Below, one piece after another: positions 3,893 to 62,200 of a DNA stretch of 64,000 nucleotides. The notes beneath the pieces were generated by a model. The model made no database searches and was not told where the DNA came from. It saw only the letters and a list, made by a program, of their open reading frames with translations. The stretch lies in assembly GCF_963921235.1 (NCBI RefSeq), contig NC_086097.1:310001-374000 (forward strand), read 5' to 3'. The first letter of the stretch is position 1. Every line of letters begins with the position of its first letter. Made by a program: the position numbers and the translations under genes. Source of the stretch: Mobula hypostoma. Taxonomy: Eukaryota.

Positions 3893-6800
3893 AGATCATG
3901 TAGCGGTGTGCTACACACAGCGCTAGAATAACCACACGGAGTCGGTGAGTTAGAGTTGCGATGAAAGAGATTTATTCAAACTTCGCGGCCTGCTTTGAAG
4001 CCTTCCTGTTCCCGCCCTCCCTGGGGCGGGACTGCTGTGGGGAATGCATATTCCCAGACCCTTTCCGCGCGCGGAATTTTCCCCCTGCTGGTGAAGATGG
4101 CCTGGCGCCCTTTTTGGGGCCGGCCCTCTGCCTGCGTGCGCTGTTGTGACCCGGTTCGTGTGTGCCAGAAAGTGGGTTGCCACAACCACCTTATACAGCG
4201 GGCAGCTGTTGGAGCTGGCAGCAGAGTGAGTGGGAGCAGAGTGCAGGGTTTTGGCTTCAGCGGTAAACGGGAATAGGCGAGAGCAAAGCACCAACTTTTT
4301 TTTCTCCCCCCGCCCTTTCGTGAATTGGACCGGACAGACAGGAACAGCAGGGCTCTCACAGCTAACGGTACGAGCATCTGCGCCAGGTGCACCGAGATGC
4401 GGCTCCTCAGAGACCATGTTAGGGATCTGGAGCTGCAGCTTGATGATCTGCTTATCAGGGAAAGTGAAGAAGTGATAGGAGCTACAGGGAGTAGTCATCC
4501 CTAGGCTACAGGGGTCAGAAAACTGGGTCACTGTCAAGAGAGGGAAGGGAAATGCCCGGATAGTGGAGAGCACACCTGTGGCTGTCCCCCTCAGCAACAA
4601 ATATCTTGTTCTGGATCCTGTTGAGGGGGATGACCTGACAGGGGATGCCCACGGTGACCGGATCTCTGGCACTGAGCCTGGCGCTGTTGTGCAGGAGAAG
4701 GAGGGAGAAGAGGAATGCGGTAGTCATAGGGGATTCCATAGTCAGGGGAACGGACAGGAGGTTCTGTGAGCCTGATAGAGATACCCGCATGGTGTGTTGC
4801 CTCCCAGGTGCCAGGGTACGGGATGTCTCGGATCGGGTTCTGAATATTCTGAAGGGGGAGGGCGAGCAGCCAGTTGTCTTGGTACATGTTGGTACCAATG
4901 ACATAGAGAGGACAAAGGAGGAGGTCCTGAAGAGAGATTTCTGGGAGTTAAGAAGGAAGCTGAGAAGCAGGACCTCCAGGGTAGTAATCTTGGGATTGCT
5001 ACCTGTGCCACGTGCTAGCGAGGGCAAGAATAGTAGGATCAGGCAGATGAATGCATGGTTGAGAGATTGGTGCAGGGGGCAGGGCTTCAGATTCTTGGAT
5101 AATTGGGATCTCTTCTGGGGGAAGTATGACCTGTTCAAAAAGGACAGGTTACACCTGAACCCGAAGGGGACCAATATCCTGGCGGGAATTTAATAGAGCT
5201 GTTAGGGAGGGTTTAAACTAATTTGGCAGGGGGATGGGAACCGGAATGACAGCGGAGGAAGGGGAAAACAGAAATAAATCTAAGATAGTGAGCAGTAAAG
5301 ATGTCAGGAAAGACAGGCAGGTGATGGGGCAAATTTGTAGCCATTGGGATGAGTTGCAGTGCAATAAAGTTGCAGTGAAATCAAAGCGAAAAGTACCAAA
5401 TACTGGTCTTGAGGTGTTATACTTAAATGCACGCAGCATAAGGAATAGGTGGATGATCTTGTCGTACAGCTACAGATTGGCAGGTATGATATTGTGGCCA
5501 TCACAGAGACCTGGCTAAAGGATGCATGTTTCTGGGAGTTGAACATCCAGGGATACACGGTGTATCGGAAGGATAGGAAGGTAGGCAGAGGGGAGGCGTG
5601 GCTTTATTGGTAAGAAATGATATTAAATCATTAGAAAGAGGTGATATAGGATCGGAAGGTGCAGAATCTTTATGGGTTGAGCTAAGAAATTACAGGGGTA
5701 AAAGGACCCTGTTGGCAGTTATTTATAGGCCTCCAAATAGCTGCAGGGATGTGGACTACAAATTACAACAGGAAATAGAAAAGGCTTGTCAGAAGGGCAG
5801 TGTTATGATAATTGTGGAGGATTTTAACATGCGAGTGGATTGGGAAAATCAGGTCGGCACTGGATCTCAAAAGAGAGAATTTGTAGAATGTCTGCAAGAT
5901 GGCTTTTTAGAACAGCATGTTGTTGAGCCCACTGGGGGATCGGCTGTACTGGATTGGGTATTGTGTAATGAACCGGAGGTGATTAGAGAGATTGAGATGA
6001 AGGAACCCTTAGGAGGCAGTGATCATAACATGATTGAGTGCACTGTGAAATTTGAAAAAGAGAAGCCGAAATCTAATGTGTCGGTATTTCAGTGGAGTAA
6101 AGGAAATTACAGTGGTATGAGAGAAGTCAAAGCCAAAGTTAAAGCAAAGGAGAGGGCATACAAGGAAGCAAAAATTAGTGGGAAGACGGAGGATTGGGAA
6201 GATTGCAATGTCAATCCGCTATTTAAGAAGGGGGCAAGGAAGCAAAAAGGAAATTATAGACCTGTTAGCTTGACATCGGTGGTTGGGAAGTTGTTGGAGT
6301 CGATTATCAAGGATGAGGTTACAGAGTACCTGGAGGCATATAACAAGATAGGCAGAACTCAGCATAGATTCCTTAAAGGAAAATCCTGCTTGACAAACCT
6401 ATTACAATTTTTTGAGGAAATTACAAGTAGGCTAGACAAGGGAGATGCAGTGGATGTTGTATATTTGGATTTTCGGAAGGCCTTTTACAAGGTGCCACAC
6501 ATGAGGCTACTTAACAAGATAAGAGCCCATGGAATTACGGGAAAGTTACATACGTGGGTAGAGCGTTGGCTGATTGGCAGGAAACAGAGACTGGGAATAA
6601 AGGGATCCTATTCTGGTTGGTTGTCAGCTACCAGTGGTGTTCCACAGGGGTCCGTGTTGGGGCTGCTTCTTTTTACATTGTACATCAACGATTTGGATTA
6701 TGGAATAGATTCAAAGATTCAAAAAACTTTATTGTAATTCAAACCGTACATCAGCTCTGCAGGGCAGAATGAGACAGCATTTCTCAGGAGCAGTGCAATC

Positions 6801-7802: not shown

Positions 7803-9710
7803 TAAGCTTTTAAAAATTTCCCGATCCTCTGTATTCTCACTAATTTTTGCTTCCTTGTATGCCCTCTCCTATGCTTTAACTTGGCTTTGACTTCTCCTGT
7901 CAGCCACGGTTGCATCCTTTTTCTATTCGAAAATTTCTTCTTTTTTGGAATATATCTGTCTTGCCCCTTCCTCACTTCTCGCATAAACTCCAGCCACTGC
8001 TGCTCTGCCATCCTTCCCACCAGTGTCCCTTTCCAGTCAACTTTGGCCAGTTCCTTTCTCATGCCATTGTAATTTCCTTTACTCCGGACACATTAGATTT
8101 CGGCTTCTCTTTTCCAAATTTCACAGTGAAGTCAATCATGTTATGATCACTGCCTCCTAAGGGTTCCTTGACCCCAATCTCTTTAATCACTTCTGGTTCA
8201 TTACGCAATACCCAATCCAGCACAGCCGATCCCCGAGTGGGCTCAACAACAAGCTGTTCTAAAAAGCCATCTTGCAGACATTCTACAAATTCTCTCTCTC
8301 GAGATCCAGTGCCGACCTGATTTTCCCAATCCACTCGCATGTTAAAATCCCCCACAATTATCATAACACTGCCATTCTGGCAAGCCTTTTCTATTTCCTG
8401 TTGTATTTTGTAGTCCACATCAATGCATCTGTTAGGAGGCCTGTATATAACTGCCATCAGAGTCCTTTTACCCCTGCGATTTCTTAGCTCAACCCATAAA
8501 GATTCTGCACCTTCCGATCCTATGTCACCTCTTTCTAATGATTTAATATAATTTCTTACCAATAAAACCACTCCACCCCTCTGCCTACCTGCCTATCCTT
8601 CCGATACACTGTGTATCCTTGGATGTTCAGCTCCCAGAGACATGCATCCTTTAGCCATGTCTCTGTGATGGCCACAATATCATACCTGCCAATCTGTAGC
8701 TGTACGACAAGATCATCCACCTTATTCCTTATGCTGCGTGCATTTAAGTATAACACCTTAAGTCCAGTATTTGGTACTTTTTGCTTTGATTGCACTGCAA
8801 CTTTATTGCACTGCAACTCATCCCAATGGCTGCAAGTTTGCCCCATCACCTGCCTGTCTTTCCTGACATCTTTATTGCTCACTATCTTAGATTTAATTCT
8901 GTTTTCCCCTTCGTCTGCTCTGTCATTCTGGTTCCCATCCCCCTGCCAAATTAGTTTAAACCCTCCCTAACAGCTCTATTAAACCTTCCCGCCAGGATAT
9001 TAGTCACCTTCGGGTTCAGGTGTAACCTGTCTTTTTTGAACAGGTCATACTTCCCCCAGAAGAGATCCCAATTATCCAAGAATCTGAAGCCCTGCCCCCT
9101 GCACCAACCTCCCAGCCATGGATTCATCTGCCTGATCCTACTATTCTTGCCCTCGCTAGCACGTGGCATAGGTAGCAATCCTGAGATTACTACCCTGGAG
9201 GTCCTGCTTCTTAGCTTCCTTCCTAACTCCCGGAAATCTCTCTTCAGGACCTCCTCCCTTTTCCTATCTATGTCATTGGTACCAACACGTACCAAGACAG
9301 CTGGCTGCTCGCCCTCTCCCTTCAGAATATTCTGGACCCGATCTGAGACATCCTGTGCCCTGGCACCTGGGAGGCAACACACCATGCGGGTATCTCTATC
9401 AGGCTCACCGAATCTCCTGTCTGATCCCCTATGACTACCGTATTCCTCTTCTCCCTCCTTCTCTCCTGTACAACAGCACCAGTCTCAGTGCCTGAGACCC
9501 GGTCACCGTGGCCGTCCCCTGTCAGGTCATCCCCCTGAACAGCATCCAAAACGATATACTTGTTGCTGAGAGGGGCAGCCACAGGGGTGCTCTCCACTAT
9601 CCTGGCATTTCCCTTCCCTCTCCTGACAGTCACCCAGTTTTCTGACCGCTGTAGCCTTGGGATGAGTACCTCCCTGTAGCTCCTGTCTATCATCTCCTCA
9701 CTCTCCCTAA

Positions 9711-11729: not shown

Positions 11730-12885
11730 ACTAATGTAGGAAGCAGAGAGGCTTCAAAAGGACTTAGACAGATTGGGAGACTGGGCAAAGAAATGCCAGA
11801 TGGAAAACAGTGTCGGGAAATGTATGGTCATGCACTTTTGGAGAAGAAATGAAATGGTAGACTATTTTCTAAATGGAGAGAAAATTTGAATAACTGAGAT
11901 GCAAAGAGACTTGGGCATCCTTTTGCAGGATTCCTTGGAGGTTAATTTGCAGCTTGAGTCAGTGTGAGGAAGTCAAATATGATGTTAGCATTCATATCAA
12001 GAGGACTAGAAGATACTGGCATTGTACCGGATGACTGGAAAATTGCAAATGTTACTCCGCTATTTAAGAAGGGTGGGAGGCAGCAGAAAGGAAGCTATAG
12101 ACCTGTCAGCCTCACATCAGTGGTTGGGAAGTTGTTGGAATTGATTGTTAGGGATGAGATTACAGAGTACCTGGAGGCACATGACAAGATAGGCCAAAGC
12201 CAGTAGGGTTTCCTGAAAGAAAAATCCTGCTTGACTAACCTGCTGCAACTTTTTGAGGAAATTACAAGCAGGGTAGACAAAGGAGATGCAGGAGATGTGT
12301 ACTAGGATTTTCAGATGGCATTTGACAAGGAGCCCCATATGAGGTTGCTCAGCAAGATATGAGCCCATGGAATTACAGGGAAGTTACGGGCATGGGTGGA
12401 GCATTGGCTGATACGCGGAAAACAGAGAGTGGGAATAAAGGGATTCTATTCTGGCTGGCTGCTGGTTAGCAGTGGAGTTCCACAGGGTTCGGTGTTGGGA
12501 CCGCTGCTTTGTATGATGTATGACAATGATTTGGGCTATGGGATTATTAGATTTGTGGCTAAATTTGCTGATGATACAAAGATAGGTGGAGGAGGGCCTA
12601 GTGTGGAGGAAACAGACAGCCTGCAGAGAAACTTAGATAATTTAGTGGAATGGGCAGAGTGGCAAATGAAATACAATGTTGGAAAGTGTATGGCCATACA
12701 CTTCGGTGGAAGAAATAAGCGGGTAGACATTGAGATGAGGAGATAATTCAAAGTGCAGAGATGCAAAGGGAGTTGGGAGTCCTTGTGCAAGATACCCTAA
12801 AGTTCAACCTCCAGCTTGAGTTGGTGGTGAAGAAGGCGAATGTAATGTTGGTATTCATTTCTAGAGGTATATAATATAAGAGCAG
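11730..12885 (+). mobile_element. Mosaic of CR1 ORF2 fragments
   Basis: [34 protein letters not shown]. Confidence 0.8.
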
Positions 12886-15800
12886 GGGGCAGGGATTCGG
12901 ATTTCTGGATCATTGGGACCTCTTTTGGGGCAGGTGTGACCTGTACAAAAAGGACGGGTTGCACTTGAATCCCAGGGGGACCAATATCCTGGTGGGGAGA
13001 TTTGCTAAGGCTACTGGGGAGAGTTTAAACTAGAATTGTTGGGGGGCAGGAACCGAACTGAAGTGACCGGGGAAGAGGCAGTTGGCTCACATATAGAGAA
13101 AGCTTGAAGACAGTGTGTGAGGGAGGATAGGCAGGTGATAGAGAAGGGACACGCTCAGACGGACGGTTTGAGATATGTCTATTTTAACGCAAGGGGTATT
13201 GTGAACAAAGCGGATGAGCTTAGAGCGTGGATCAGTACTTGGAGCTATGATGTGGTGGCCATTACAGAGACTTGGATGGCTCAGGGACAGGAATGGTTAC
13301 TTCAAGTGCTGAGTTTTAGATGTTTCAGAAAGGACAGGGAGGGAGGCAAAAGAGGTGGGGGCATGGCACTGTTGATCAGAGATAGTGTCACAGCTTCAGA
13401 AAAGGTGGACGTCATGGAGGGATTGTCTACGGAGTCTCTGTGGGTGGAGGTTAGGAACAGGAAGGGGGTCAATAACTTTTCTGGGTGTTTTTTATGGGCC
13501 GCCCAATAGTAACAATGATATCGAGGAGCAGATAGGGAATCAGATCCTGGAAAGGTGTAATAATAACAGAATTGTCGTGATGGGAGATTTTAGTTTCTCA
13601 AATATCAATTGGCATCTCCCGAAAGTGGGGGGTTTCAGATGGGGTGGAGTTTGTTAGGTGTGTTCAGGAAGGTTTCTTGACACAATATGTAGATAAGCCT
13701 ACAAGAGGAGAGACTGTACTTGATTTGGTGTTGGGAAATGAACCTGGTCAGGTGTCAGATCTCTCAGTGGGAGAGCATTTTGGAGATAGTGATCTAAATT
13801 CTATCTCCTTTACAATAGCATTGGAGAGAGATAGGAGCAGACAAGTTAGAAAAGCGTTTAATTGGAGTAAGGGGAATTATGAGGCTATCAGGCAGGAAAT
13901 TGGAAACTTAAATTTGGAACAGATGTTCTCAGGGAAAAGTATGGAAGAAATGTGGAAAATGTTCAGGGGATATTTGTGTGGAGTTCTGCGTAGGTATGTT
14001 CCAATGAGACAGGGAAGTTATGGTAGGGTACAGGAGCTGTGGTGTACAAAGGCTGTAATAAATCTAGTCAAGAAGAAAAGAAAAGCTTACGAAAGGTTCA
14101 GAGAGCTGGTTATGTTAGAGATCTAGAAGATTATCAGGCTAACAGGAAGGAGTTTAAAAAGGAAATTAGGAGAGCCAGAAGGGGCCATGAGATCATAAGA
14201 CAAAGGAGCAGAAGTAGGCCATTCGGCCCATCGAGTCTGCTCGGCCATTTTATCATGAGCTGATGCATTTTATCCTATTTAGTCCCACTGCCCCGCCTTC
14301 TCACCATAACCTTTGATGCCCTGGCTACTCAGATACCTATCAATCTCTGCTTTAAATACACCCAATGACTTGGCCTCCACTGCTGCCCGTGGCAACAAAT
14401 TCCATAGATTCACCACCCTCTGACTAAAAAAATTTCTTTGCATTTCTGTTCTGAAAGGGCACCCTTCAATCCTGAAGTACAATGAGAAGGCTTTGGCAGG
14501 CAGGATTCAGTAAGACCCCAAGGCATTCTACAAGTATGTGAAAAGCAAGAGGATAAGACATGAACGAATACACCTATCAAGTGTGACAGTGGGGAAAATG
14601 TGTATGGAACTGGAGGAAATAGCAGCAGTGCTTAATGAATACTTTACTACAGTATTCATTATGGAAAAGGATCTTGGTGATTGTAGTGATGACTTGCAGC
14701 AGACTGTAAAGCTTGAGCATGTAGATATTAAGGGAGAGGATGTGCTGCAACTTTTGGAAAGCATCAAGTTGGATAAGTTGCCGGGACCAGATGAGATGTA
14801 CCCCAGGCTACTGTAGGAGGCGAGGGAAGAGATTGCTGAGCCTCTGGCAATGATCTTTGAATCATCAATAGGGATGGGAGAGGTTCCAGAGGATTAGAGG
14901 GTTGCAGATATTGTTCCTTTATTCAAGAAAAGGAGTAGAGATAGCCCAGGAAATTATAGACCATTGATCTTACTTCAGTGGTTGATAAGTTAATGGAGAA
15001 GATCCTGAGAGGCAGGATTTATGAACATTTGGAGAAGCGTAATATGATTAGGAATAGTCAGCATGGCTTTGTCAAGGGCAGGTCGTGCTTTACGAGCCTG
15101 ATTGAAATTTTTGAGGATGTGACTAAACACATTAATGAAGGAAGAGCAGTAGATGTAGTATATATGGATTTAAGCAAGGCATTTGATAAGGTATCCCATG
15201 CAAGGCTTATTGAGAAAGTAAGGAGGATGGGATCCAAGGGGACATTGCTTTCTGGATCCAGAACTGGCTTGCCCACAAAAGGCAAAGAGTGGTTGTAGAC
15301 GGGTCATATTGTGCATGGAGGTCGGTGACCAGTGGTGTGCCTCAGGGATCTGTTCTGGGACCCCTTCTCTTCGTGATTTTTATAAATGAGCTGCATGAGG
15401 AAGTGGAGGGATGGGTTAGTAAGGTTGGGAATGTTGTGGATAGTGTGGAGGGCTGTCAGAGGTTACAGCAGGATATTGATAGGATGCAAAACTGGGCTGA
15501 GAAGTGGCAGGTGGAGTTCAACCCAGATCAGTGTGAAGTGGTTCATTCTGGTAGGTCAAATATGATGGCAGAATATAGTATTAATGGTAAGACGCTTGGC
15601 AGTGTGGAGAATCAGAGGAATCTTGGGATCCGAGTCCATAGTACGCTCAAAGCAGCTGCGCAGGTTGACTCTGGTTAAGAAGGCATACGGTGTATTGTCC
15701 TTCATTATTCGTGGAATTGAATTTAGGAGCTGAGAGGTAATGTTGCAGCTATATAGGACCCTGGTCAGACCCCACTTGGAGTACTGTGCTCAGTTCTGGT

Positions 15801-21243: not shown

Positions 21244-23180
21244 AGGTTTGCTAAAGCTGTTGGGGAGAGTTTAAACTAGAATTGCAGGTAGGTGGGAACC
21301 GAACTGAAGAGACAGAGGAAGGGATGGTTGGCTCACAGATGGAGAAAGCTTGAAGGCAGTGTGAGAGGGAGGATAGGCAGGTGACAGAAAAGGGATGCGC
21401 CCTGACTGATGGTTTGAGATGTGTCTATTTTAAAGCAAAAAACATCATGAACAAAGCGGATGAACTCAGAACGTGAATCAGTACTTGGATCTGTGATGCT
21501 GTGGCCATTACAGAGACTTGGCTGGCTTAGGGGCAGGAATGGTTACTTAGAGTACCAGGCTTCAGATGTTTCAGAAAGGACAGGGAGAGATGCAAAAGAG
21601 GTGGGGGCCGTGGCACTGCTGATCAGAGGTAGTGTCATGGCTGCAGAAAAGGAGGAAGTCATGGAGGGATTGTCTACTGAGTCTCTGGGTGGAAGTTAGG
21701 AACAGCAAGGGGTCAATAACTCTACTGGGTGTTCTTTTTTTGACCACCCAATAGTAACAGGGACATTGAGGTGCAGATAGGGAGACAAATTCTGTGGTGT
21801 ACAAAGACTGTTGAAAATCTAATCAAGAAGAAAAGAAAAGCTTACAAAAGGTTCAAAAAACTAGGTAATGATAGAGATCTAGAAGATTATAAGACTAGCA
21901 GGAAGGAGTTTAAGAATGAAATTAGGAAAGCTGGAAGGGGCCATGAGAAGACCTTGGTAAGCAGGATTAAGGAAAACCCCAAGGCATTCTACAAGTATGT
22001 GAAGAGCAAGAGGATAAGATGTGGAGAGAATAGGACCAATCAAGTGTGACAGTGGAAAAGTGTGTATGGAACCGGAGGAGATAGAGGAGGTACTTAATGA
22101 AAACCTTGCTTCAGTATTCACTATGGGAAAGGACCTTGGCGATTGTAGGGATGACTTACAGCGGACCGAAAAGCTTAAGCATACAGACATTAAGAAAGAG
22201 GACATGTTGCAGGTTTTGGAAAGCACCAAGTTGGATAAGTCACCGGGACCAGGCGAGATATACCCCAGGCTACTGTGGCAGGCGAGGGAGGAAATTGCTG
22301 AGCCTCTGACAATGATTTTTGCATCATCAATGAGGATGGGAGAGGTCCCGGAGGATTGGAGGTTTGCAGATGTTGTTCCCTTATTCAAGAAAGGGAGTAG
22401 AGATAGCCCAGGAAACTATAGACCAGTGAGTCTTACTTCAGTGGTTGGTAAGTTGATGGAGAACATCCTGAGCGGCAGGATTTATGAACATTTGGAGAAG
22501 CATAATATGATTAGGAAGAGTCAGCATGGCTTTGTCACAGGCAGGTCGTGCCTTATGAGCCTGATGAAATTTTTGAGGATGTGACATTGATTAAGATAGA
22601 GTAGTAGATGTAGTGTATATGGATTTCAGCAAGGCAGTCAATAAGGTACCCCATACAAGACTTATTGGGAAAGTAAGGAGGTATGGGATTCAAGGGGACA
22701 TTGCTTTGTGGATCCAGAACTGGCTTGCCCAAAGAAGGCAAAGGGTGGTTGTAGTCGGGTCATATTCTGCATGGAGATTGGTGACCAGTGGTGTGCCTCA
22801 GGGATCTGTTCTGGGACCTCTTCTCTTCGTGATTTTTATAAATGAGCTGCATGAGGAAGTGGAGGGATGGGTTAGTAATTTTGCTGATGACACAAAGGTT
22901 AGGGTTATTGTGGATCGTGTGGAGGAGGGCTGTCAGAGGTTACAGCAGGACATTGATAGGATGCAAAACTGGGCTGAGAAGTGGCAGGTGGAGTTCAACC
23001 CAGATCAGTGTGAAGTGGTTCATTCTGGTAGGTCAAATATGATGGCAGAATATAGTATTAATGGTAAGACTCTTGGCAGTGTGGAGGATCAGAGGGATCT
23101 TGGGGTCCGAGTCCATAGGACACTCAAAAGCTGCTATGCAGGTTGACTCTGTGGTTAAGAAGGCATATGGTGCCTTCATC
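21244..23180 (+). mobile_element. CR1 subfamily B copy with internal deletions
   Basis: ORF1 end GESLN*, APE start, RT ORFs at 22021-23146. Confidence 0.85.
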
Positions 23181-28600: not shown

Positions 28601-29065
28601 TTCAACATCTTCTGATCCTATGTCACATCTTTCTACTGATTTGATGCCATTCTTTAACAGTAGAGCCACACCACCCCTTCTGCCTACCGTCCTATCCCTC
28701 CAATATAACATATAAACTTGGACATACAGCTCCCAACTACAACCACCCTTCAGCCACGATTCAGTGATGGCCACAGCATTATACCTGGCAATCTGTAATA
28801 TTGCAACAAGATCAGCCAGCTGATTTCTTACACTACACGCATTTAGATACAGCACCTTCAGTTCCATATTTGCTATCCTTTCTGACTCTGCATCCCTAAT
28901 GATTTGATACTCAGCCTATTGGCTGCAACTAGGTCCCATCACCTGCCTGCCCTTCCTGACAATCTGCCTGCACGCTATCTTTACTTCTTTTTAACTATCC
29001 GTCCTTTCCTGAGTCCCTTCACTCTGGTTCCCAGTCCCCTGCCGAGTTAGTTTAAACCCTCCCCA
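25632..29065 (-). mobile_element. CR1 subfamily C ORF2 (25632-~28400) joined to the APE 5' part of an A-like subfamily (~28400-29065)
   Basis: 25632-28400 closely matches 33953-36720; abrupt switch of sequence type near 28400. Confidence 0.85.
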
Positions 29066-35300: not shown

Positions 35301-38300
35301 CACAGACGTAAGGCTCAGTGGTCTATAATTACCTGGACTATCCCTACTACCTTTTTTGAACAAGGGGACAACATTCGTCTCCCTCCAATCCTCCGGTACC
35401 ATTCCCATGGACAACGAGGACATAAAGATCCTAGCCAGAGGCTCAGCAATCTCTTCCCTCGCCTCGTGGAGCAGCCTGGGGAATATTCCGTCAAGCCCCG
35501 GGGGCTTATCCTTCCTAATGTATTTTAACAACTCCAACACCTCCTCTCCCTTAATATCAACATGCTCCAGAACATCAACCTCACTCATATTGTACTCACC
35601 GTCATCAAGTTCCCTCTCAATGGTAAATACCGAAGAGAAGTATTCTTGAGGACCTCGCTCACTTGCACAGCCTCCAGGCACATCTTCCCACCTTTATCTT
35701 TAATCAGTCTTACCTTCACTCCTGTCATCCTTTTGTTCTTCACATAATTGAAGAATGCCTTGGGGATTTCCTTTACCCTGCTCGCCAAGGCTTTCTCATT
35801 CCCCCTTCTTGCTCTCCTCAGACCCTTCTTAAGCTCCTTTCTTGCTACCCTATATTCCTCAATAGACCCATCTGATCCTTGCTTCCTAAACCTCATGTAT
35901 GCTGCCTTCTTCCACCTGACTAGACTTTCCACCTCGCTTGTCACCCATGGTTCCTTTACCCTACCATTCTTTATCTTCCTCACTGGAACAAATTTATCCC
36001 TAGCATCCTGCAAGACATCCCTAAACATCGACCACATGTCCATAGTACATTTCCCTGGAAAAACATCATCCCAATTCACACCCGCAAGTTCTAGCCTTTT
36101 AACCTCATAATTTGCCCTTCTCCAAGTAAAAATTTCCCTGTCCTCTCTAATTCTATCCTTTTCCATGATAGTGTTAAATGCCAGGGAGCCGTGGTCACTG
36201 TCTCCCAGATGTTCACCCACTCAGAGATCTGTGACCTGACCCAGTTCGTTACCCAATACTAGATCTATTATGGCATTCCCCCTAGTTGGCCTGTCAACAT
36301 ACTGTGACAGGAATCCGTCCTGGACACACTTAACAAATGCTGCCCAGTCTAAAGCATTAGAACTAATCAGATGCCAATCAATATAAGGGAAGTTAAAGTC
36401 ACCCATGATAACAACACTGTTATTTTTGCACCTTTCCAAAATCTGCCTCCCAATCTGCTCCTCGGTATCTCTGCTGCTACCAGGGGGCCTATAGAATACC
36501 CCCAATAGAGTAACTGCTCCCTCCTTGTTCCTGACTTCCACCCATACTGACTCAAAAGAGGATCCTGCAACATTACCCACCCTTTCTGTAGCTGTAATAG
36601 TATCCCTTGCCAGTAATACCACCCCTCCTCCCCTTTCCCCCCTCTCTATCCCTTTTAAAGCTCGAAAATCCAGGAATATTGAGAATCCATTTCTGCCCTG
36701 GTGACAGCCAAGCCTTTGTAATGGCCACTGCATGATAGTTCCATGTATGTATCCAAGCTCTCAGTTCACCACCTTTGTTCCTGATGCTTCTTGCATTGAA
36801 GTGCACGCACTTTAGCCCTTCTACCTTACTACCTTTTAACGCTTTATTCTGCTTCTCTTTCCTCAAAGCCTCTTTCTCTGTTAGATCTGGCTTTAATCCA
36901 TGCACTATACTTGCAGTTCTCGCATGACCTTTATCCTCCTCCACCTCACTCTCTGCTCTAACACTGGTTCCCCTTCCCCTGCAAATCCAGTTTAAACCCC
37001 CCGGAGCAGCACTAACAAACCTTCCCGCAAGGATGTTAGTCCCCCTCCTGTTCAATGCAACCCGTCCCGTTGGAACAGGTCCCACCTTCCCTGGAACAAG
37101 GCCCAATTGTCCAGAAACATGAAGCCCTCCTTCATGTACCAACTCCTTAGCCACGTATTTAGCTGTATTATCTTCTTATTTCTAGCCTCACTAGCACATG
37201 GCATGGGTAGCAATCCTGAGATTACAACCCTGGAGGTCCTGTCCTTCAACTTTGCACCTAACTCCCTAAACTCTCTTTGTAGGACCTCCTCCTCAGTCCT
37301 ATCCATGTCATTGGTCCCTACATGGACCAAAACATCTGGCTGCTTACCCTCCTACATGAGAATACTGAGAACTCGATACGAGATATCGCGGACCCTGGCA
37401 CCAGGGAGGCAACAGACCATCTGCAATTCTTGATCGCTCCCATAGAACCTCTTATTTGTCCCCCTAACTATTAAATCCCCTATCACTACTGCTGTCCTCT
37501 TTTCCCTCCTTCCTTGCTGAGCTGAGGGTCCCGTCTCGGTGCCAGAGACGTGACCACTACAACTTGTCCCTGGTAGGTTATCCCCACCAACAGTATCCAA
37601 AACAGTATTCTTATTAATGATAGGAACGACCACAAGGGTGCTCTGCTCTTTCTGTCTATTCCACTTCCCTCTTCTGATAGTCACCCAGCTACCTGCCTCC
37701 TGACTTTTAGGGGTGACTGTCTCCCTGAAACTCCTGTCTATTTCTATTTCTGCTTCTGCCTCATGAATGATCTGAAGTTCATCCAGCTCCAGCTCCAGTT
37801 CCCTAACTCAGTTTGTCAGGAGCTGCAGCTGGATGCACCTTTTACAGGTGTAGTCATCAGAGACAATTGTACTCGCCCTGACTTCCCACATCCTGCAATC
37901 TGAGCACTCGACTGCCCTAACTGCTGCCTCCATTACCTACTCCTAAGTTAATTAGATTAATTAAAGGAACTTACCTGGCCTTACCTCACTGGGAGTAAGC
38001 TCATCCTTAACCCCTGCTCGCTGAAGCCTCTCGAGCCAAAGCCTTCCCACTCTGTCTCCCACTACTCAGTTGCACGCTCTGTTAATCTACTCGCTTTTTA
38101 AGCTCTCCTGCTGTCTCGCAGGCCGACCTTCACGCGCTTGTGCAGTTGTGCCCCGTTCAAACTGCTGAAGAAATCAAGGTAGGACATACACAGTAAATGT
38201 TAGGGTACTGAGGTGTGCGGAGTAATAAGGAGATCTGGGAGTTCAGATACATAATTCCCTGAAAGTGGCGTCACAGGTAGACAGGATTGTAAAGAAGGCT

Positions 38301-42812: not shown

Positions 42813-44209
42813 CAGTGATCGAGGAACGACGGCGCAGGCGCGTGGATGTCAGCAAGTTAGACCGATGGGAAGAGTATAAAAGGCGATCATTTTTTCTTTG
42901 GCGGTAAGATCGAGGAACGACTGCGGAGGCATGTGGACGTCAGCGAGTTAGACCGGCTGGAAGAGTATAAAAAGAAGACAGCTTTATAGAGCGTGTGCCA
43001 GAGGAGCAGGCAACTGAGTAGTGGTAGACAGAGTAAGAGGGCTTTGGCTCAATGGGGCTTTGGCAATAATGGGTCAAGATGAGGTACCTGTGAAGAATAG
43101 AAACAAAAAGTATGTCTGTGAGACTTGTGTTCTGTACTGGGTGTCAGATGTGGGAAGTCCAGGAGACTCCCAGCCTCCTGGACAGCCACATTTATGCCAG
43201 GTGCGTTGAGCTGCAGCTCCTTCGGGACCGGGTTAGGGACCTGGAGCTGCAGCTCGATGATCTTCATCTGGTTAGCGAAAGCGAGGAGGTGATAGAGAGG
43301 AGCAAATAAGCAAGTAGTCACACCGGGGCCTCGAGAGACAGGTAAGTGGGTAACAATCAGGAGAGGGAAGGACAAGAGTCAGATACTAGAGAATACCCCT
43401 GTGGCTGTCCCCCTTAACAGTAAGTACTCCTGTTTGAGTACTGTTTGGGGGGGATGACCTACCTGAGGGAAGCAACAGTGGCCACGCCTCTGGCACAGAG
43501 TCTGGTCCCTGTGGCTCAGAAGGGTAAGGAAAGGAAGAAGGCATCAGTATTAGAGAACTCAAAAGTTAGGGGTCAGACAGGCGATTCTGTGGACGCAGGA
43601 AAGAAACACGGATGGTAGTTTGCCTCCCAGGTGCCAGGGTCTGGGATGTTTCTGATTGTGCCAACGATATTCTGAAGTGGGAAAGTGAACAGCCAAAGGT
43701 CGTGGTACATATTAGTACCAACGACGTAGGTAGGAAATGGGAGGAAGTCCTGAAAACAGACAACAGAGAGTTATGAAGGAGGTCGAGAAGCAGGACCTCA
43801 AAGGTAGTAATCTCGGGATTACTGCCTGTGCCATGTGACAGTGAGTATAGAAATAGAGTGAGGTGGAGGATAAATGCGTGGCTGAGGGAATGGAGCATGG
43901 GGCAGGGATTCAGATTTCTGGATCATTGACCTCTTTTGGGGCAGGCAGGACAGGTTGCATTTGAATCTGAGGGGGACCAATATCCTGGCAGGGAGGTTTG
44001 CTAAGGCTATTGGGGTCAGTTTAAAATAGAGTTTCTGGGGGGGTGGGAACTCAAGTGAAGAGACAGAGGAAGTGGCTGTTGGCTCACAAATAGAGAAAGC
44101 TTGGAGACTTTGCGAAAGGGAGGATAGCCAGGTGATAGACAAGGGATGTGCTCAGACCGATGGTTTGAGATGTGTCTATTTTAATGCAAGAAGCATCATG
44201 AACAAAGCG

Positions 44210-50221: not shown

Positions 50222-51814
50222 GTGAGTATATCTGAAATTCTAAAAAAATTACTCTGATTCTTACGGTTTGCTATCATGTTCTGGAATAAATATTAACTCT
50301 GTTGTAACCAGTGATAAATTTTGCCCCTATGTTTCTGGATTTGATTCTCGTGAGAAAGTTCACATTGGCATGGGAAATAGGAGCTGTTGGAGAAGGAGCA
50401 TTGAGTACTTTCAGACACATCATCTGCATGTTAGAGGACTCTTAAGAGTATTGCAGCCCAAATTTGTGCTGGCCTATTTTTCTGCCTAGTCCCATCTACC
50501 CGTACTGGGCTGTAGTCCCATCTACATACACTTCTGATCCATGTACTTATACAAATCCGTGTCCACCACCTCCACTGGTAGCTCTTTCCACACTCACTAT
50601 CCTTTGAATGAAGAAATTCCCTTCAGGTTTCCCTTAAACATTTCACTTTCTACCCTTAATCCATGACCACCAGTTTTAATCTCTCCTATCCTCAGTGGAA
50701 TAAGCCTGCTTGCATTTATCCAATTTATACACCTCTCAAATCTCCTCTCAATATTCTTCCTCTAGCAAGGTAACCAGAACTACACACAGTATTCCCTGTA
50801 GGGCCTTCAACTTCAACATAGCATACCAAATCGTGTACTTAGCATTCTGATTTATGAAGATCATCGTGCTAAAACCTTTCTTTATCACCCTCTCAACCTG
50901 AGGGTAGGTTGGCCAGGATTGTTCAGGTGGGTTTAAGCTAAATTTCTGGGGGATCGGAACTAGATTGTTTATGCTCAAGATGAGGTAGTTGGTTTACAGA
51001 CAGAGGCAACGTGTACTGAGACTGCGAACAAGGAAAGGCAATTGAGAAGGCAAAATTCCAATCAACTGATGAGTTGCAACATAAAATATGGACAAAATTG
51101 AAAAAGATGAATACAGGACTGAAGGTGTTGTATTTGAATGCGCGCAGTATGCTGTGTAAGATGGATGAACTTGTAGCACAGTTACAGATTGGCATGTATG
51201 ATGCTGTAGGCATTGCTGAATCATGGTTGAAAGAAGATTATAGCTGGGAGCTTAATATCCAAGGTTACGCATTGTATCAAAAGGACAGGCAAGAGGCAGA
51301 GTGGATGGCATTGCTCTATTCGTAAAAAGTGAAATCAAATCATTAGAAAGAGATGGCATAGGCTCGGAAGATGTTGAATCATTGTGGATAGGTTTGAATT
51401 GCTTGTCATTTGAAGAGCATTCAATAACTCTGGGCCTGTATTCGCTATAATTCAGAAGAATGAGGGGTGACCTCATTGAAACCTATCGAATGGTAAAAGT
51501 CTTTGATGGAGTGGATGTGGAGAGGATGTTTTCTCTGGTGGGGGAGTCTAAGACCAGAGGACACAGCCTCAGAATAGAGTGTCCTTTGAGAATGGAGGTG
51601 AGAAGGAATTTCTTTAGCCAAAGAGTGGTGAATCTGTGGAATTCTTTGCCACAGGCAGTTGTGGAGGCAGAGGTTGATAGATTCTCGATTGGTCGGGGTG
51701 TGAAGGGATACAGGGAGAAGGCAGACGATTGGGGCTGAGAGGAAAAATGGATCAGCCATGATAAAATGGTGGAGCAGACTCTTTGGGCCAAATGGCCTAA
51801 TTCTGCTCCTATAT

Positions 51815-56670: not shown

Positions 56671-59260
56671 AAATATAAATATGTAAGATGGCTTATGTAC
56701 ATTGATTATAAAGTGAAGGTTGGCACAAGAGTCGTGGTACGTAAAGTGACTCTGACAAAAAAATGAGAAAGTAGTGGTGGTTGGAGGTGTGGGATAGGTT
56801 AGTGGGTGGAGGTTTTGATCAGGCTTGGTTCTTGGGGAAAGTAACTGTGTTGAATTTGGTGGCCCTGGTGTGAATGCTACATAGCCGGCTCCCTGATGAG
56901 AGTGGGACAAACAGGCTGGGTGGGTTTCTTCATGATATTTCTGGCATCTCTCTGTATATATATCCTTGGTGGGTAGGCTGATGCCAGTGATGCACAGGGC
57001 AGTTTTGACTACCTGTTGTGGAGCCTTACTGTCCGCTGCAGTGCAGTTTTCATAACAGGCATGGTGCAGCATGTTAAGGTGCTCTCCACTGTGCTTCTAC
57101 AGAAGGATGTGCCTAATGCTGTGCATAGTCCAGTTCTCTTCAGGCTTCTCAGAAAGCAGAGGTGTTGGTTAACTTTCTTGATTATGTAGAATATGTTCTA
57201 GGATGATGAGAGGTTGTGCAAGATGTGCACTCCCAGGAGCTTGAAACTGCTTGCAGTGCCACCAAAAGTAGTAAGTAGTTCGAGTTCAACTGAAGTCAAC
57301 AACTATTTCCTTTGATTTGTTGACATAGTGGAAGAGGTTATTTGCCTGGCACCAGTCCTCAAGCTCTTCCATCTCCTGTCTATAGCCCATTCCCCACACG
57401 AAACCACCACGGTGAGCTTCACAGCTCTACAGGTGAGAAGACAGCTGAAACGTCTCAACCCAAGCAAGGCTGCAGGACCGGATGGTGTCAGTACCAGGGT
57501 GCTCAAAGCCTGTGCCCCTCAGCTGTGTGGAGTAGTTCGCCATGTATTCAACCTGAGCCTCTGGAGGGTTCCTGTATTGTGGAAGACATCCTGCCTCGTC
57601 CCTGTTCCGAAGACGCCGCACCCCAGCGGCCTCAATGACTACAGACCAGTGGCATTGACCTCCCATATCATGAAGACCCTGGAGAGACTTGTTCTGGAGC
57701 TGCTCTGGCCTATGGTCAGGCCACACTTAGATCCCCTCCAGTTCGCCTACCAGCCCCGACTAGGAGTTGATGCCATCATCTTCCTGCGGAACCGTGTCTA
57801 CGCCCACCTAGACAAGCCAGCGAGCACTGTGAAGGTCATGTTGTTTGATTTCTCCAGTGCGTTCAACACCATCCGCCCTGCTCTGCTGGGGGAGAAACTG
57901 ACAGCGATGCAGGTGGATGCTTCCCTGGTATCATGGATTCTTGATTACCTGACTGGCAGACCACAGTACGTGTGCTTGCAACACTGGGGCTCCACAGGGG
58001 ACTGTCTTGTCTCCCTTTCTCTTCACCATTTACACCTCGGACTTCAACTACTGTACAGAGTTTTTTCATCTTCAGAAGTTTTCTGATGACTCTGCCATAG
58101 TTGGATGCATCAGCAAGGGAGATGAGGCTGAGTACAGGGCTACAGTAGGAAACTTTGTCACATGGTGTGAGCAGAATGATCTGCAGCTTATTGTGAAAAA
58201 GACTAAGGAGCTGGTGGTAGACCTGAGGAGAGCTAAGGTACCGGTGACCCCTGTTTCCATCCAGGGGGTCAGTGTGGACATGGTGGAGGATTACAAATAC
58301 CTGGGGATACGAATTGACAATAAACTGGACTGGTCAAAGAACACTGAGGCTGTCTACAAGAAGGGTCAGAGCCGTCTGTATTTCCTGAGGAGACTGAGGT
58401 CCTTTAACATCTGCTGAGGATGTTCTACGAGTCTGTGGTGGCCAGTGCTATCATGTTTGCTGTTGTGTGCTGGGGCAGCAGGCTGAGGGTAGCAGACACC
58501 AACAGAATCAACAAACTCATTCGTAAGGCCAATGATGTTGTGGGGATGGAACTGGACTCTCCGACAGTGGTGTCTGAAAAGAGGATGCTGTCTAAGTTGC
58601 ATGCCATCTTGGTCATTGTCTCCCATCCACTACATAATGTACTGGGTGGGCACAGGAGTACATTCAGCCAGAGACTCATTCCACCGAGATGCAGCACTGA
58701 GCGTGATAGGAAGTCATTCCTGCCTCTGGCCATCAAACTTGTGGCTAAAGGGATCAGGGGGTATGGAGGGAAGGCTGGTGCAGGGTTCTGAGTTGGATGG
58801 TCAGCCATGATCATACTGAATGGCGGTGCAGGTTCCGGCCTGCATACTGAATGGCCTACTCCTGCACCTATTTACTATGTCTCTCTATGTTCTAAACTTT
58901 ACAACTCCTGCCTTGGAGGGTCAGACACCCTGAGCCAATAGGCTGGTCCTAGACTTATTTCATAATTTACTGGCATAATTTACATGTTACTATTTAACTG
59001 TTTATGGTTCTATTACTATTTATTATTTATGGAACAACTGTAACAAAAACCAATTTCCCCCGGGATTAATAAAGTATGACTATGACTATCTCATAGTTGT
59101 TGGTAGCAGTGAGAGATTAAAAATATGTGGTACCAAAAGAGATAGCAGAGATGTTGTGCCATTCGGGTGTTTGGCCATGCAGTTGTGGATCAGCACAGTG
59201 TACGTCAGTGGGCTCAGCAAACAGTCCGGGGGGGGTGCACTTGTTTTGAGGATGATGGGG
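56671..59260 (-). mobile_element. Older Rex/Babar-like LINE remnant (56671-~57389 and ~59089-59260) split by a younger Rex1
   Basis: ORF 56647-57072 NCTAADSKAPQQVVKTA resembles a Rex/Babar C-terminus. Confidence 0.55.
57390..59090 (+). mobile_element. Rex1/Babar LINE RT and 3' end, with a CR1 tail inserted at 58741-58893 (TSD AAACTT)
   Basis: KAAGPDG, DYRPVALTS..MKTLERLV, DPLQFAY, DFSSAFNTI, FSDD; tail aataaagtatgactatgact. Confidence 0.92.
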
Positions 59261-59269
59261 AGGGAAGAG

Positions 59270-62200
59270 CACCACAGTGACCGGGTCTCTGGCACTGATC
59301 CTGGCGCTGTTGTGCAGGAGGGAAGGAGGGAGAAGAGGAATGCGGTAGTCATAGGGGATTCCATAGTCAGGGGAACAGACAGGAGATTCTGTGAGCCTAA
59401 TAGAGATACCCGCATGGTGTGTTGCCTCCCAGGTGCCAGGGTACGGGATGTCTCGGATCGGGTCCTGAATATTTTGAAGGGAGAGGGCAAGCAGTCAGTT
59501 GTCTTGATACATGTTGGTACCAATGACATAGATAGGATAAGGGAGGAGGTCCTGAAGAGAGATTTCTGGGAGTTAGGAAGGAAGCTGAGAAGCAGGACCT
59601 CCAGGATAGTAATCTCGGGATTGTTACCTGTGCCACGTGCTAGCGAGGGCAAGAATAGTAGGATCAGGCAGATGAATACGTGGCTGAGAGATTGGTGCAG
59701 GGGGCAAGGCTTCAGATTCTTGGATCATTGGGATCTCTTCTGGGGGAAGTATGACCTGTTCAAAATGGACAGGTTACACCTGAACCTGAAGGGGACCAAT
59801 ATCCTGGCGGGAAGGTTTAATAGAGCTGTTAGGGAGGGTTTAAACTAATTTGGCAGGGGGATGGGAACCAGAATGACAGAGCAGAGGAAGGGGAAAACAG
59901 AAATAAATCTTAGATAGTGAGCAGTAAAGATGTCAGGAAAGACAGGCAGGTGATGGGGCAAATTTGTAGCCATTGGGATGAGTTGCAGTGCAATAAAGTT
60001 GCAGTGAAATCAAAGCGAAAAGTACCAAATACTGGTCTTAAGGTGTTATACTTAAATGCACGCAGCATAAGGAATAAGGTGGATGATCTTGTCGCACAGC
60101 TACAGATTGGCAGGTATGATATTGTGGCCATCACTGAGGCGTGGCTAAAGGATGCATGTCTCTGGGAGCTGAACGTCCAAGGATACATGATGTATCAGAA
60201 GGATAGGAAGGTAGGCAGAGGGGGGGGCGTGGCTTTATTGGTAAGAAATGATATTAAATCATTAGAAAGAGGTGATATAGGATCGTAGTGTGCAGAATCT
60301 TTGTGGATTGATCTAAGAAATCGCAGGGGTAAAAGGACCCTGATGGCAGTTGTATATAGGCCTCCAAACAGCTGCAGTGATGTGGACTACAAATTACAAC
60401 AGGAAATAGAAAAGGCTTGTCAGAAGGGCAGCGTTATGATAATTGTGGGGATTTTAACATGCGAGTGGATTGGAAAATCAGGTCGGCACTGGATCTCAAG
60501 AGAGAGAGTTTGTAGAATGTCTGCGAGATGGCTTTTTAGAACAGCTTGTTGTTGAGCCCACTAGGGGATCGGCTGTACTAGATTGGGTATTGTGTAATGA
60601 ACCGGAGGTGATAGAGAGATTGAGGTGAAGGAACCCTTAGGAGGCAGTGATCATAACATGATTGAGTTCACTGTGAAATTTGAAAAAGAGAAGCCGAAAT
60701 CTGATGTGTCGGTATTTCAGTGGACTAAAGGAAATTATAGTGGCATGAGAGAGGAACTGGCCAAAGTTGACTGGAAAGGGACACTGGCGGGAAGGACGAC
60801 AGAGCAGCAGTGGCTGGAGTTTATGCGAGAAGTGAGGAAGGTGCAAGACAGGTATATTCCAAAAAAGAAGAAATTTTTGAATGGAAGAAGGATGCAACTG
60901 TGGCTGATAAGAGAAGTCAAAGCCAAAGTTAAAGCAAAGGTGAGAGCATACAAGGAAGTAAAAATTAGTGGAAAGACAGAGGATTGGGGAAGTTTTTAAA
61001 AGCTTACTAAAGGAAACTAAGAAGGTCATTAAGAGGGAAAAGATTAACTATGAAAGGAAGCGAGCAAATAATATCAAAGAGGATACTAAAAGCTTTTTCA
61101 AGTATATAAAGAGTAAAAGACAGGTGAGAGTAGATATAGGACCGATAGAAAATGATGCTGGAGAAATTGTAATGGGAGATAAGGAGATGGCGGAGGAACT
61201 GAACGAGTATTTTGCATCAGTCTTCACTGAGGAAGACATCAGCAGGATATCGGACACTCAAGGGTGGCAAGGAAGCGAAGTGTGTGCAGTCACAATTACG
61301 ACAGAGAAAGTACTCAGGAAGCTGAATAGTCTAAAGGTTGATAAATCTCCTGGACCAGATGAAATGCACCCTCATATTCTGAAGGAAGTAGCTGTGGCGA
61401 TTGCAGAGGCATTAGCAACGATCTTTCAAAAGTCGATAGATTCTGGCATGGTTCCGGAGGACTGGAAGATTGCAAATGTCACTTCGCTATTTAAAAAGGG
61501 GTCAAGGAAGCAAAAAGGAAATTATAGACCTGTTAGCTTGACATCGGTGGTTGGGAAGTTGTTGGAGTCGATTGTCAAGGATGAGGTTACAGAGTACCTG
61601 GAGGCATATGACAAGATAGGCAGAACTCAGCATGGATTCCTTAAAGGAAAATCCTGCCTGACAAACCTATTACAATTTTTTGAGGAAATTACAAGTAGGC
61701 TAGACAAGGGAGATGCAGTGGATGTTGTATATTTGGATTTTCGGAAGGCCTTTGACAAGGTGCCACACATGAGGCACATGAGGCAAGGTAAGAGCCCATG
61801 GAATTACGGGAAAGTTACATACATGGATAGAGCGTTGGCTGATTGGCAGGAAACAGAGAGTGGGAATAAAGAGATCCTATTCTGGTTGTCTGCCGGTTAC
61901 CAGTGGTGTTCCACAGGGGTCCGTGTTGGGGCCGCTTCTTTTTACGTTGTACATCAACAGTTTGGATTATGGAATAGATATCTTTGTGGCTAAGTTTGCT
62001 GATGATACGAAGATAGGTGGAGGGTCCGGTAAGTGTTGAGGAAACAGGGAGTCGGCAGAGAGACTTGGATAGATTGGAAGAATGGGCAAAGAAGTGATAA
62101 ATGAAATACAGTGTTGGAAAGTGTGTGGTTATGCACTTTGGCAGAAGAAATAAATGGGCAGACTGTTATTTAAATGGGGAGAGAATTCAAAGTTCTGAGA

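Follow-up and report, generated by a model that had tools for sequence, protein, structure and literature searches.

How is the second of the open reading frames (ORFs) in a long interspersed nuclear element (LINE) translated when it opens, in another frame, just before the first one stops? The question is raised by a 64-kb stretch of Mobula hypostoma DNA (contig NC_086097.1, positions 310,001 to 374,000, forward strand; hereafter the window), which belongs to a 3.48-Gb animal genome and is filled with LINE copies of the CR1 type. For the junction between ORF1 and ORF2 of these copies a preliminary description of the window had proposed a programmed -1 ribosomal frameshift at the heptamer U_UUA_AAC. 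Our analysis supports the fusion protein inferred there, and those tests in silico that it had named as able to refute the idea, and that were run, favour it. We consider it probable that programmed -1 frameshifting at U_UUA_AAC joins the ORF1 esterase to the apurinic/apyrimidinic endonuclease (APE) and the reverse transcriptase (RT) of ORF2, and that a run of G residues downstream of the heptamer helps.

Families of copies are named here by the positions of their junctions in the window: A at 5212, 8960 and 59839, B at 13024 and 21270, C at 29056, D at 36996, and E, which is B-like, at 44020. The junction is described on the family-A copy with the heptamer at 59839, which has the following features:

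58979..59848, + strand: ORF1 of a family-A CR1-type LINE copy, 289 amino acids (stop-to-stop frame including the stop, from the ORF list)
59830..59832, + strand: TAG in the -1 (ORF2) frame, which sets the upstream end of the ORF1/ORF2 overlap (16 nt)
59839..59845, + strand: slippery heptamer T_TTA_AAC, X_XXY_YYZ in ORF1 phase
59839..60039, + strand: linker read at -1, the frame of ORF2, beginning with the heptamer and reaching up to the endonuclease domain, 201 nt or 67 codons
59846..59848, + strand: ORF1 stop TAA, adjoining the heptamer; TAG or TGA in other lineages, always adjacent
59856..59865, + strand: G-run GGGGGATGGG, 11 nt after the heptamer, candidate stimulatory element
59911..59913, + strand: TAG in the ORF2 frame, private to the copy at 59839; AAG in the others
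59953..59955, + strand: ORF2-frame ATG of families A and C, with ATA at this place in family B and the B-like copy (44020)
60040..60285, + strand: start of the ORF2 APE domain (KVLYLNARS...), broken by a stop at 60286
60962..61993, + strand: reverse-transcriptase part of ORF2 of the same copy, PF00078, E = 3.1e-11

ORF1 encodes a GDSL/SGNH esterase, with Pfam matches to PF13472 (E = 6.4e-13, residues 125-272) and PF00657 (E = 1.7e-6). Its closest relative, a stingray 'uncharacterized protein', shares 85% identity with it, and its relatives carry the same Pfam families. The endonuclease fragment at 60040-60285 matched PF03372 with E = 3.2e-5 and 24.2 bits, slightly below the Pfam cut-off of 24.5. 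With an esterase ORF1 and an APE-RT ORF2 the copy is, by its domain content, a LINE with an esterase-type (type IV) ORF1, of the CR1/L2 group. The name CR1 itself is a provisional label taken from the preliminary description; it fits the ORF1 type (PMC4120745).

The 3' end of ORF1 (59837-59848) reads GGT TTA AAC TAA, and T_TTA_AAC therefore has X_XXY_YYZ phase and is immediately followed by the stop. Read at -1, the sequence from 59839 (TTT AAA CTA ATT TGG...) shares its phase with KVLYLNARS, the endonuclease motif at 60040. Since the -1 frame contains a TAG at 59830-59832, the overlap between the two ORFs is limited to 16 nt. The ORF1 ending, the phase of the heptamer, the -1 position of ORF2 and the shortness of the overlap, all of them claimed in the preliminary description, were confirmed on the sequence from 59830 to 60040.

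The same junction was found in distant relatives. A scan of metagenome contigs with the ORF1 alignment gave 70 loci, 16 of which had both esterase and endonuclease matches. ORF1 ends GCT TTA AAC TAG in three of the loci (L074, L075 and L077), GCT TTA AAC TGA in L084 and TCG TTA AAC TAG, that is G_UUA_AAC, in L072, and two decayed loci (L071 and L083) retained the same letters. ORF2 lies at -1 in every intact member of this heptamer class, behind linkers of 156, 204 and 210 nt and other lengths. Its frame opens 16-22 nt before the ORF1 stop, the overlap being 16-19 nt in three intact copies (L072, L074 and L075), and the heptamer makes up the last 7 nt before the stop. Past the stop, the -1 frame continues for 435 codons (L075) and 493 codons (L072) and encodes the endonuclease, with clear matches to PF03372 and PF14529 in both.

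These relatives are remote enough for a comparison with synonymous expectation, which the preliminary description had suggested. Between the ray families, L074/L075, L084 and L072 the ORF1 proteins share 26-43% identity, and four-fold degenerate sites at shared residues differ in 50-90% of cases, which means that they are saturated. The last two codons of ORF1 are nevertheless TTA AAC in all four lineages, and the codon before them ends in T (GGT, AGT or GCT) in all but L072, where it ends in G. Elsewhere in the same ORF1 stretches TTA accounts for 0-20% of Leu codons and AAC for 9 of 34 Asn codons, and T is found at 20-37% of third positions. Retention by chance would have a probability of about 1e-6 (0.11^3 x 0.26^3 x 0.25^2), a rough value that takes the ray state as given and assumes three lineages to be independent. 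Judged from these sequences, selection is acting on the nucleotides of the heptamer and not only on a Leu-Asn C-terminus, and it is this deep comparison, not the one within the genome, that carries the argument from conservation.

The ORF1 proteins point the same way. Forty of 107 relatives (rays, skates, sharks, frogs) end in x-L-N, where x is G in 21, T in 5, C, S, D and A in 3 each, and Y and L in 1 each; all of these residues have NNT codons. K, Q, E, M or W were never found at x (0/40), as against 16% at positions -13 to -4 and 24/40 at position -4. The x-L-N relatives are interrelated, and we use the pattern as supporting evidence only. ORF1 relatives from teleosts and bichir have other C-terminal ends.

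Is the -1 frame behind the heptamer open in the families to which the window copies belong? Copies were drawn from the genome by similarity to the window junctions (A, n = 30; B, n = 30; C, n = 12), with query stretches of 511-750 nt that included the heptamer and so favour copies resembling those of the window. The heptamer was intact in 28/30 copies of A, 26/30 of B and 10/12 of C. For family C, whose ORF1 phase is taken from these other copies, ORF1 ends in ...GRFVRAVGEGLN, followed by TAA. The preliminary description had named synonymous variation of the heptamer in young copies as adverse to its proposal; the variants of individual copies in the three families were singletons and one near-identical pair, which looks like decay after insertion and not like a change at subfamily level. 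Nor did the majority sequences of A, B and C contain any fixed stop in the -1 frame of the linker, which it had regarded in the same light. Between heptamer and endonuclease the majority sequence has an uninterrupted -1 frame of 74 codons in A, 56 in B and about 72 in C, and its other two frames hold 4-9 stops over the linker in A and B and several in C. Among single copies the -1 frame was open and free of indels in 24/30 (A) and 19/30 (B), and either other frame in 0/30 of both families. Beyond the linker the majority ORF2 frame stayed open throughout the available data, for 449 codons in A and 426 in B.

The stops in the linkers of some window copies, which the preliminary description had listed as an obstacle, proved to be private to these copies and absent from the sampled ones. 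Every aligned copy outside the window reads AAG (by eye) in place of the TAG at 59911, and the TGA at 13105 and 21351 occurs in 0/30 family-B copies elsewhere, of which 25 read TGG. Contigs from four runs, from four organisms, were also compared at 80% likeness; the RNA label of these runs is only a guess, and the contigs bear on sequence, not on expression. They carry A at 59911 at almost the full depth in three runs and at 481/857 in the fourth, X15. Depth was highest on 59840-59853 in every run, and among the rows listed no alternative letter reached 10% at 59832-59848; the flanks have many such letters. Within the families, 1-2.4% of letters depart from the majority in the heptamer and 2.2-10.5% in the flanks, a contrast that says little because inserted copies decay neutrally. 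Variants shared within families and divided into synonymous and non-synonymous ones numbered just 5-9 in the linker, which left the comparison without power, and on rough alignments even ORF1 and APE came out near neutral.

A second element of the junction, the G-run, keeps its distance from the heptamer. Behind the heptamer, the first run of at least four G has its start at +11 in nine of the 11 -1-class sequences; the exceptions are L072 (+8) and the decayed L084 (+18), and the background is 0.002-0.010 starts of such runs per nt. The first G of the run falls in codons that vary (CAG, TTG, AAG, TCG) but all end in G, and different lineages encode different residues there (Q-G-D-G, L-G-G-G, K-G-G-T, S-G-G-Q). 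Since the distance is kept while the encoded residues change, the run is conserved as RNA. The G-rich tract that the preliminary description had noticed is real and in most sequences constant in its start, and the folding of the downstream sequence that it had recommended gave no conserved helix. G-quadruplexes placed after UUUAAAC have been reported to cause -1 frameshifting of up to ~7%, with an optimum spacer of 6-8 nt and 0.4% frameshifting without them, and the same quadruplexes also stimulate readthrough in reporters (PMC3919603). A quadruplex at the G-run described here is possible but not evident from the sequence.

A start codon for a separate ORF2 protein was also looked for. No AUG suited to a restart lies at the ORF1 stop or within a few nt of it, where the -1 frame reads AAA CUA in A, B and C; the closest one, at 59861, belongs to the ORF1 frame. 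An in-frame ATG follows the heptamer by 38 codons in families A and C (59953 in the window), and ATA stands in its place in family B and in the B-like copy at 44020. A conserved AUG for reinitiation, which the preliminary description had named as evidence against a frameshift, was therefore not found in the three families. The majority sequence of family B has no Met at all in its 56 linker codons, and in the window B copy the first Met comes after ...AITETW, a motif that holds a catalytic residue. An AUG-started ORF2 product of this family would therefore lack essential endonuclease residues.

Some smaller observations concern the same part of the junction. The AUG at 59861 lies inside the G-run GGGGGATGGG and opens a short ORF in the ORF1 frame (59861-59913), which in the family-A majority has 18 codons to a TAG (by eye). 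Within the fast-changing linker the motif CAGGTGAT (59947-59955) is retained in A, B, C and the B-like copy and encodes the peptide R-Q-V-M/I. The same motif resembles the splice-donor consensus, and the run contigs gave no support for splicing; joints present in these contigs were not accepted as splicing, being carried by 1-6 contigs each with short sides.

The metagenome loci contain a sister arrangement in which the same two enzymes are separated by an in-frame UGA. In seven loci (L070, L076, L086, L100, L107, L119 and L138) ORF1 and ORF2 lie in one frame with a single TGA between them (7/7). The base after that TGA is C in 6/7, as part of CTA in 4, and the open frame that follows has 163-499 codons; in L070 and L119 Pfam placed esterase and APE in one frame. 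A GGGG run lies 15 nt after the site in L100, L107 and L138 and also in the decayed L097, which is outside the seven. The in-frame TGA-C layout is that of classical programmed readthrough and suggests readthrough in the sister group. That two recoding layouts would yield the same fusion in related elements supports the view that the fusion itself is selected. The in-frame TGA arrangement is also present in the decayed loci L097 and L128, and the C-terminus of the L070 ORF1 resembles the teleost group of ORF1 relatives.

How would the -1 signal work? On the model that we favour most ribosomes would translate ORF1 and terminate at the codon right after U_UUA_AAC. A minority, with tRNA-Leu on UUA and tRNA-Asn on AAC of the heptamer, would slip back by one base and re-pair on UUU and AAA. 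Translation would then continue in the -1 frame across a linker of 56-74 codons, which is loosely conserved, and on through the endonuclease and the reverse transcriptase. The product would be an ORF1-ORF2 fusion (...G-L-N-L-I-W-Q-G... in family A), made at a low and fixed ratio to the ORF1 protein. The G-run at +11 would be the likely stimulator, either by forming a G-quadruplex together with G-tracts that lie farther downstream or by binding a protein. The slippage, its rate and the part of the G-run are what we infer from the anatomy, phase, open frame and nucleotide conservation observed at the junction.

Several results weigh against this frameshift model. In a canonical -1 signal a stem-loop or pseudoknot lies 5-9 nt downstream; no conserved pairing of the stem-loop kind was found here, and the G-run at +11 is present instead. 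RNAalifold gave no conserved stem-loop (2 pairs for 7 ray sequences and 0 pairs for 7 metagenome sequences, with no compensatory change), pseudoknots and long-range pairing lying outside that search; single-sequence folds of family A were weak (-7.2 kcal/mol per 100 nt), and Rfam had no match at the junction. As a quadruplex the G-run is not ideal either, with two adjacent G-tracts only and moderate G4Hunter values of 1.2-2.4, and its 10-nt spacer exceeds the optimum of 6-8 nt (PMC3919603). In the linker, codon-position tests for A-B, A-C and B-C revealed no significant excess of third-position changes (p 0.23-0.41), and among the three frames the ORF2 frame had the highest amino-acid identity only for A-B; the linker peptide thus looks barely constrained, and the case for its translation rests on openness and phase alone. 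The lack of an AUG in family B is not decisive, as human L1 ORF2 is translated without needing one (cited in PMC5972666). One esterase LINE does not conform. A scan of genome contigs gave 28 loci, nearly all of them true bacterial SGNH hydrolases, and a single LINE-like one, L151, which has esterase and APE and an ORF2 at -1, with an overlap of 157 nt and no canonical heptamer at the ORF1 stop. The contig of L151 is filed under a bacterial metagenome-assembled genome and is probably eukaryotic DNA binned with a bacterium.

The argument from within the genome is weakened further, as the agreement of A, B and C in their heptamer is due in part to shared recent ancestry. The last 150 codons of ORF1 are 72% identical between A and B, with 14/47 four-fold sites changed, whereas ORF2 is 44% identical, with 33/51 changed. 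Divergence being lower in the 3' end of ORF1 than in ORF2, the ORF1 module with its heptamer is younger than ORF2. The preliminary description had stressed that the heptamer recurs in subfamilies with very different linkers; this has to be qualified, as these occurrences are only partly independent. A young ORF1 module fits the reticulate evolution of ORF1 reported for the superfamily (PMC4120745). The A and B ages (58979-60300 and 12884-13400; loci L010-L068) point to an exchange of ORF1 modules with a breakpoint near the junction.

Could the conserved junction serve some other end than programmed slippage? Ribosomes might terminate at the ORF1 stop and restart at or near it independently of AUG, making a separate ORF2 protein that includes the linker, with heptamer and G-run as a signal for retention or restart. 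Downstream G-runs with GGGA recall the UGGGA motif by which caliciviruses pair with 18S rRNA in reinitiation, but the position known for the calicivirus motif is upstream of the stop and not downstream. The ORF1 stop is always found directly at the conserved motif, an open linker is equally compatible with a restart at the stop, and L1 and SART1 use termination-linked mechanisms (PMC5972666). Against such a restart, the -1 frame offers neither AUG nor a near-cognate codon at the stop, where A, B and C all have CUA, and a restart signal needs neither an exactly phased X_XXY_YYZ nor a T at the wobble position of a variable residue. We regard this explanation as unlikely. It is quite improbable, in our judgement, that the heptamer works without any programming, a basal slippage of a fraction of a percent being sufficient and the G-run being kept for its glycine codons or for RNA packaging. 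A LINE probably needs only very small amounts of ORF2 protein, and no conserved structure was found at the junction. A UUUAAAC control without stimulator gave 0.4% in vitro (PMC3919603). This milder form of the frameshift model has to contend with a G-run whose distance to the heptamer is kept while the encoded residues change, and with the similar G-run after the in-frame UGA of the sister group.

We give still less credence to the view that the heptamer is a by-product, with the Leu-Asn C-terminus of ORF1 kept by ancestry or codon habit and ORF2 started from its own ATG through leaky scanning or internal entry. The L-N ending of 40/107 ORF1 relatives, the close relationship of families A, B and C at the 3' end of ORF1 and the in-frame ATG of A and C, 38 codons past the heptamer, would all agree with it. 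That ATG is missing, however, in family B and in the B-like copy, and the frame is open for at least 38 codons upstream of it, which a start of this kind does not need. TTA and AAC, moreover, are minority codons elsewhere yet invariant here across saturated divergence, and the phase of ORF2 relative to ORF1 is fixed despite differing linker lengths. Programmed frameshifting thus remains the explanation that we prefer. On a broader and more tentative view, which we hold to be possible but on balance doubtful, recoding would be a general and ancient route by which esterase LINEs of the CR1/L2 group make their enzymes, in a -1 branch and a UGA-C branch. The shared unstructured G-run would drive both through a protein or a quadruplex, and the fusion would tether the ORF1 protein to its own RNA. 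By this, and in contrast to L1, these LINEs would be Gag-Pol-like in the full sense.

The remaining junctions of the window are the following:

5212..5218, + strand: phased heptamer, family A
8954..8960, - strand: phased heptamer, family A, with the -1 frame open into the endonuclease
13024..13030, + strand: phased heptamer, family B (AGT TTA AAC TAG), with a private TGA at 13105
21270..21276, + strand: heptamer of a 5'-truncated family-B copy, which has a TGA (21351) in common with the copy at 13024
29050..29056, - strand: heptamer of a family-C copy truncated just upstream, its phase known from other C copies only
36990..36996, - strand: heptamer of an old family-D copy (GGT TTA AAC TGG; stop lost)
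44020..44026, + strand: TTTAAAA in a decayed B-like copy with a 1-nt insertion in the linker
50932..50938, + strand: TTTAAGC, a mutated heptamer in a 5'-truncated copy

The junction sequence GTTTAAAC is present at seven of the window junctions. TTTAAAC occurs 24 times on both strands as against 9.2 expected, a number that 0 of 100 shuffles reached, and this repeated junction, identical when read on either strand, accounts for the excess. The preliminary description had placed the phased heptamer at six further sites. Its letters were found at all of them; at 29056, where the 5' end of the copy is cut ~10 nt before the heptamer and the ORF1 phase is not visible in the window, the phase follows only from the 12 other C copies, and at 36996 the stop is lost (TGG). 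The reading of 44020 as TTTAAAA and of the site near 50932 as mutated was borne out (50932-50938 is TTTAAGC), as was the statement that in the antisense copy at 8960-8954 the -1 frame stays open from the heptamer on and enters the endonuclease. The two B copies of the window share their linker TGA (13105-13107 and 21351-21353), seen in 0/30 B copies elsewhere, which may be due either to a local duplication of one insertion or to a small dead sub-lineage.

Several database entries contain this type of ORF1 or the junction under other names. On a contig of 4 kb one ORF1 sequence is filed as 'SGNH/GDSL hydrolase family protein [Pseudomonas aeruginosa]'; it has 63% identity to the ray ORF1 and is likely contamination. 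Among ray gene models, LINE ORF1 is found in '40S ribosomal protein S24 isoform X2' and in isoforms of 'transmembrane protein 204', which are chimeric; together with the Pseudomonas entry these are the proteins P0016, P0020 and P0053/P0054. Two stingray gene models (P0023 and P0108), one of which is named 'hydroxyacid oxidase 2 isoform X1', run from esterase to endonuclease through ...GGFKL..., reading the -1 frame with no shift; we did not accept them as evidence for a frameshift, as a 1-nt change or a repair by the gene model may explain them. In the window copy at 36996 a G-run stands just before the heptamer, where it could allow a 1-nt length change in the P0023/P0108 family. For annotation this means that public ray gene models merge or split these ORFs arbitrarily (P0023, P0108).

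The junction can be set beside several known systems. U_UUA_AAC is the ORF1a/1b heptamer of coronaviruses and arteriviruses, and G_UUA_AAC is the site of equine arteritis virus. The viral signals have the same heptamers in the same phase and likewise join an upstream ORF to an enzyme ORF at -1; they differ in that a pseudoknot follows 5-7 nt downstream and the stop is not adjacent, whereas the LINEs have no conserved stem, an adjacent stop and a G-run at +11. Protein-bound stimulators lie 10-14 nt downstream in the C-rich motif of arteriviruses (nsp1beta, PCBP) and in the 2A-dependent signal of cardioviruses, and the 10-nt spacing of the G-run is similar, the comparison being one of spacing only. 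In Rous sarcoma virus the shift site A_AAU_UUA is followed by UAG. Retroviral Gag-Pol and that of long-terminal-repeat (LTR) elements resemble the proposed LINE product in the low-ratio RT fusion and in the stop directly after the shift site. They differ from it in that the LINEs described here are non-LTR elements without Gag, protease or capsid and with an esterase as the upstream protein. Frameshifting in LTR retrotransposons is described in Atkins et al. 2016 (PMC5009743). The G-quadruplex stimulators (PMC3919603) share with the LINE junction a G-rich element after UUUAAAC, which here has just two adjacent G-tracts.

Among LINEs, human L1 uses an unconventional termination-reinitiation over a 63-nt spacer and silkworm SART1 a UAAUG stop-start coupling (PMC5972666). 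The second-ORF problem is the same for both, but the elements described here have a phased heptamer and an open -1 frame, with neither a stop-bearing spacer nor an overlapping AUG. A -1 layout of the ORFs has been noted for several insect and plant LINEs. It has also been noted for the Dictyostelium non-LTR retrotransposons TRE5-A and TRE3-A, which belong to another clade and have another ORF1, and for which the available text describes no shift site, conservation or stimulator (PMC5911963). The type IV esterase ORF1 itself is known from CR1 subgroup 7 and L2 subgroup 9 (Metcalfe and Casane 2014, PMC4120745) and from zebrafish ZfL2-1 (PMC3905857). In these type IV LINEs, as in the ray elements, ORF1 is a GDSL esterase whose N-terminal part is Cys-rich and contains a coiled coil, and ORF2 is of the APE-RT type. 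The words 'frameshift' and 'overlap' have no occurrence in the available text of PMC4120745 and in that of a 2026 survey of the CR1 group (PMC13343379), nor have 'frameshift' and 'stop codon' in that of PMC3905857. The only non-LTR elements in the available part of the recoding review PMC5009743 are HeT-A and TART. A full-text literature search found no paper that ties CR1 or esterase LINEs to frameshifting or to UUUAAAC, an older mention being possible. A canonical shift site in CR1-type LINEs, with a G-run at +11 and no helix, which we did not find described, is apparently new.

The translation of the second ORF of LINEs is a long-standing question, to which experimental answers have been given only for L1 and SART1, both without a fusion. 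Nothing seems to have been written on the translation of ORF2 in the CR1 group, whose elements are the dominant retrotransposon in most vertebrates (PMC13343379). If the proposed mechanism is true, a large natural class of animal -1 frameshift signals would be added to those known, with a stimulator that is not a pseudoknot. Schneider et al. (PMC3905857) ask how esterase ORF1 proteins without RNA-binding domains join the ribonucleoprotein, and the fraction of ORF1 protein fused to ORF2 would be one answer to how they are recruited to the RNA.

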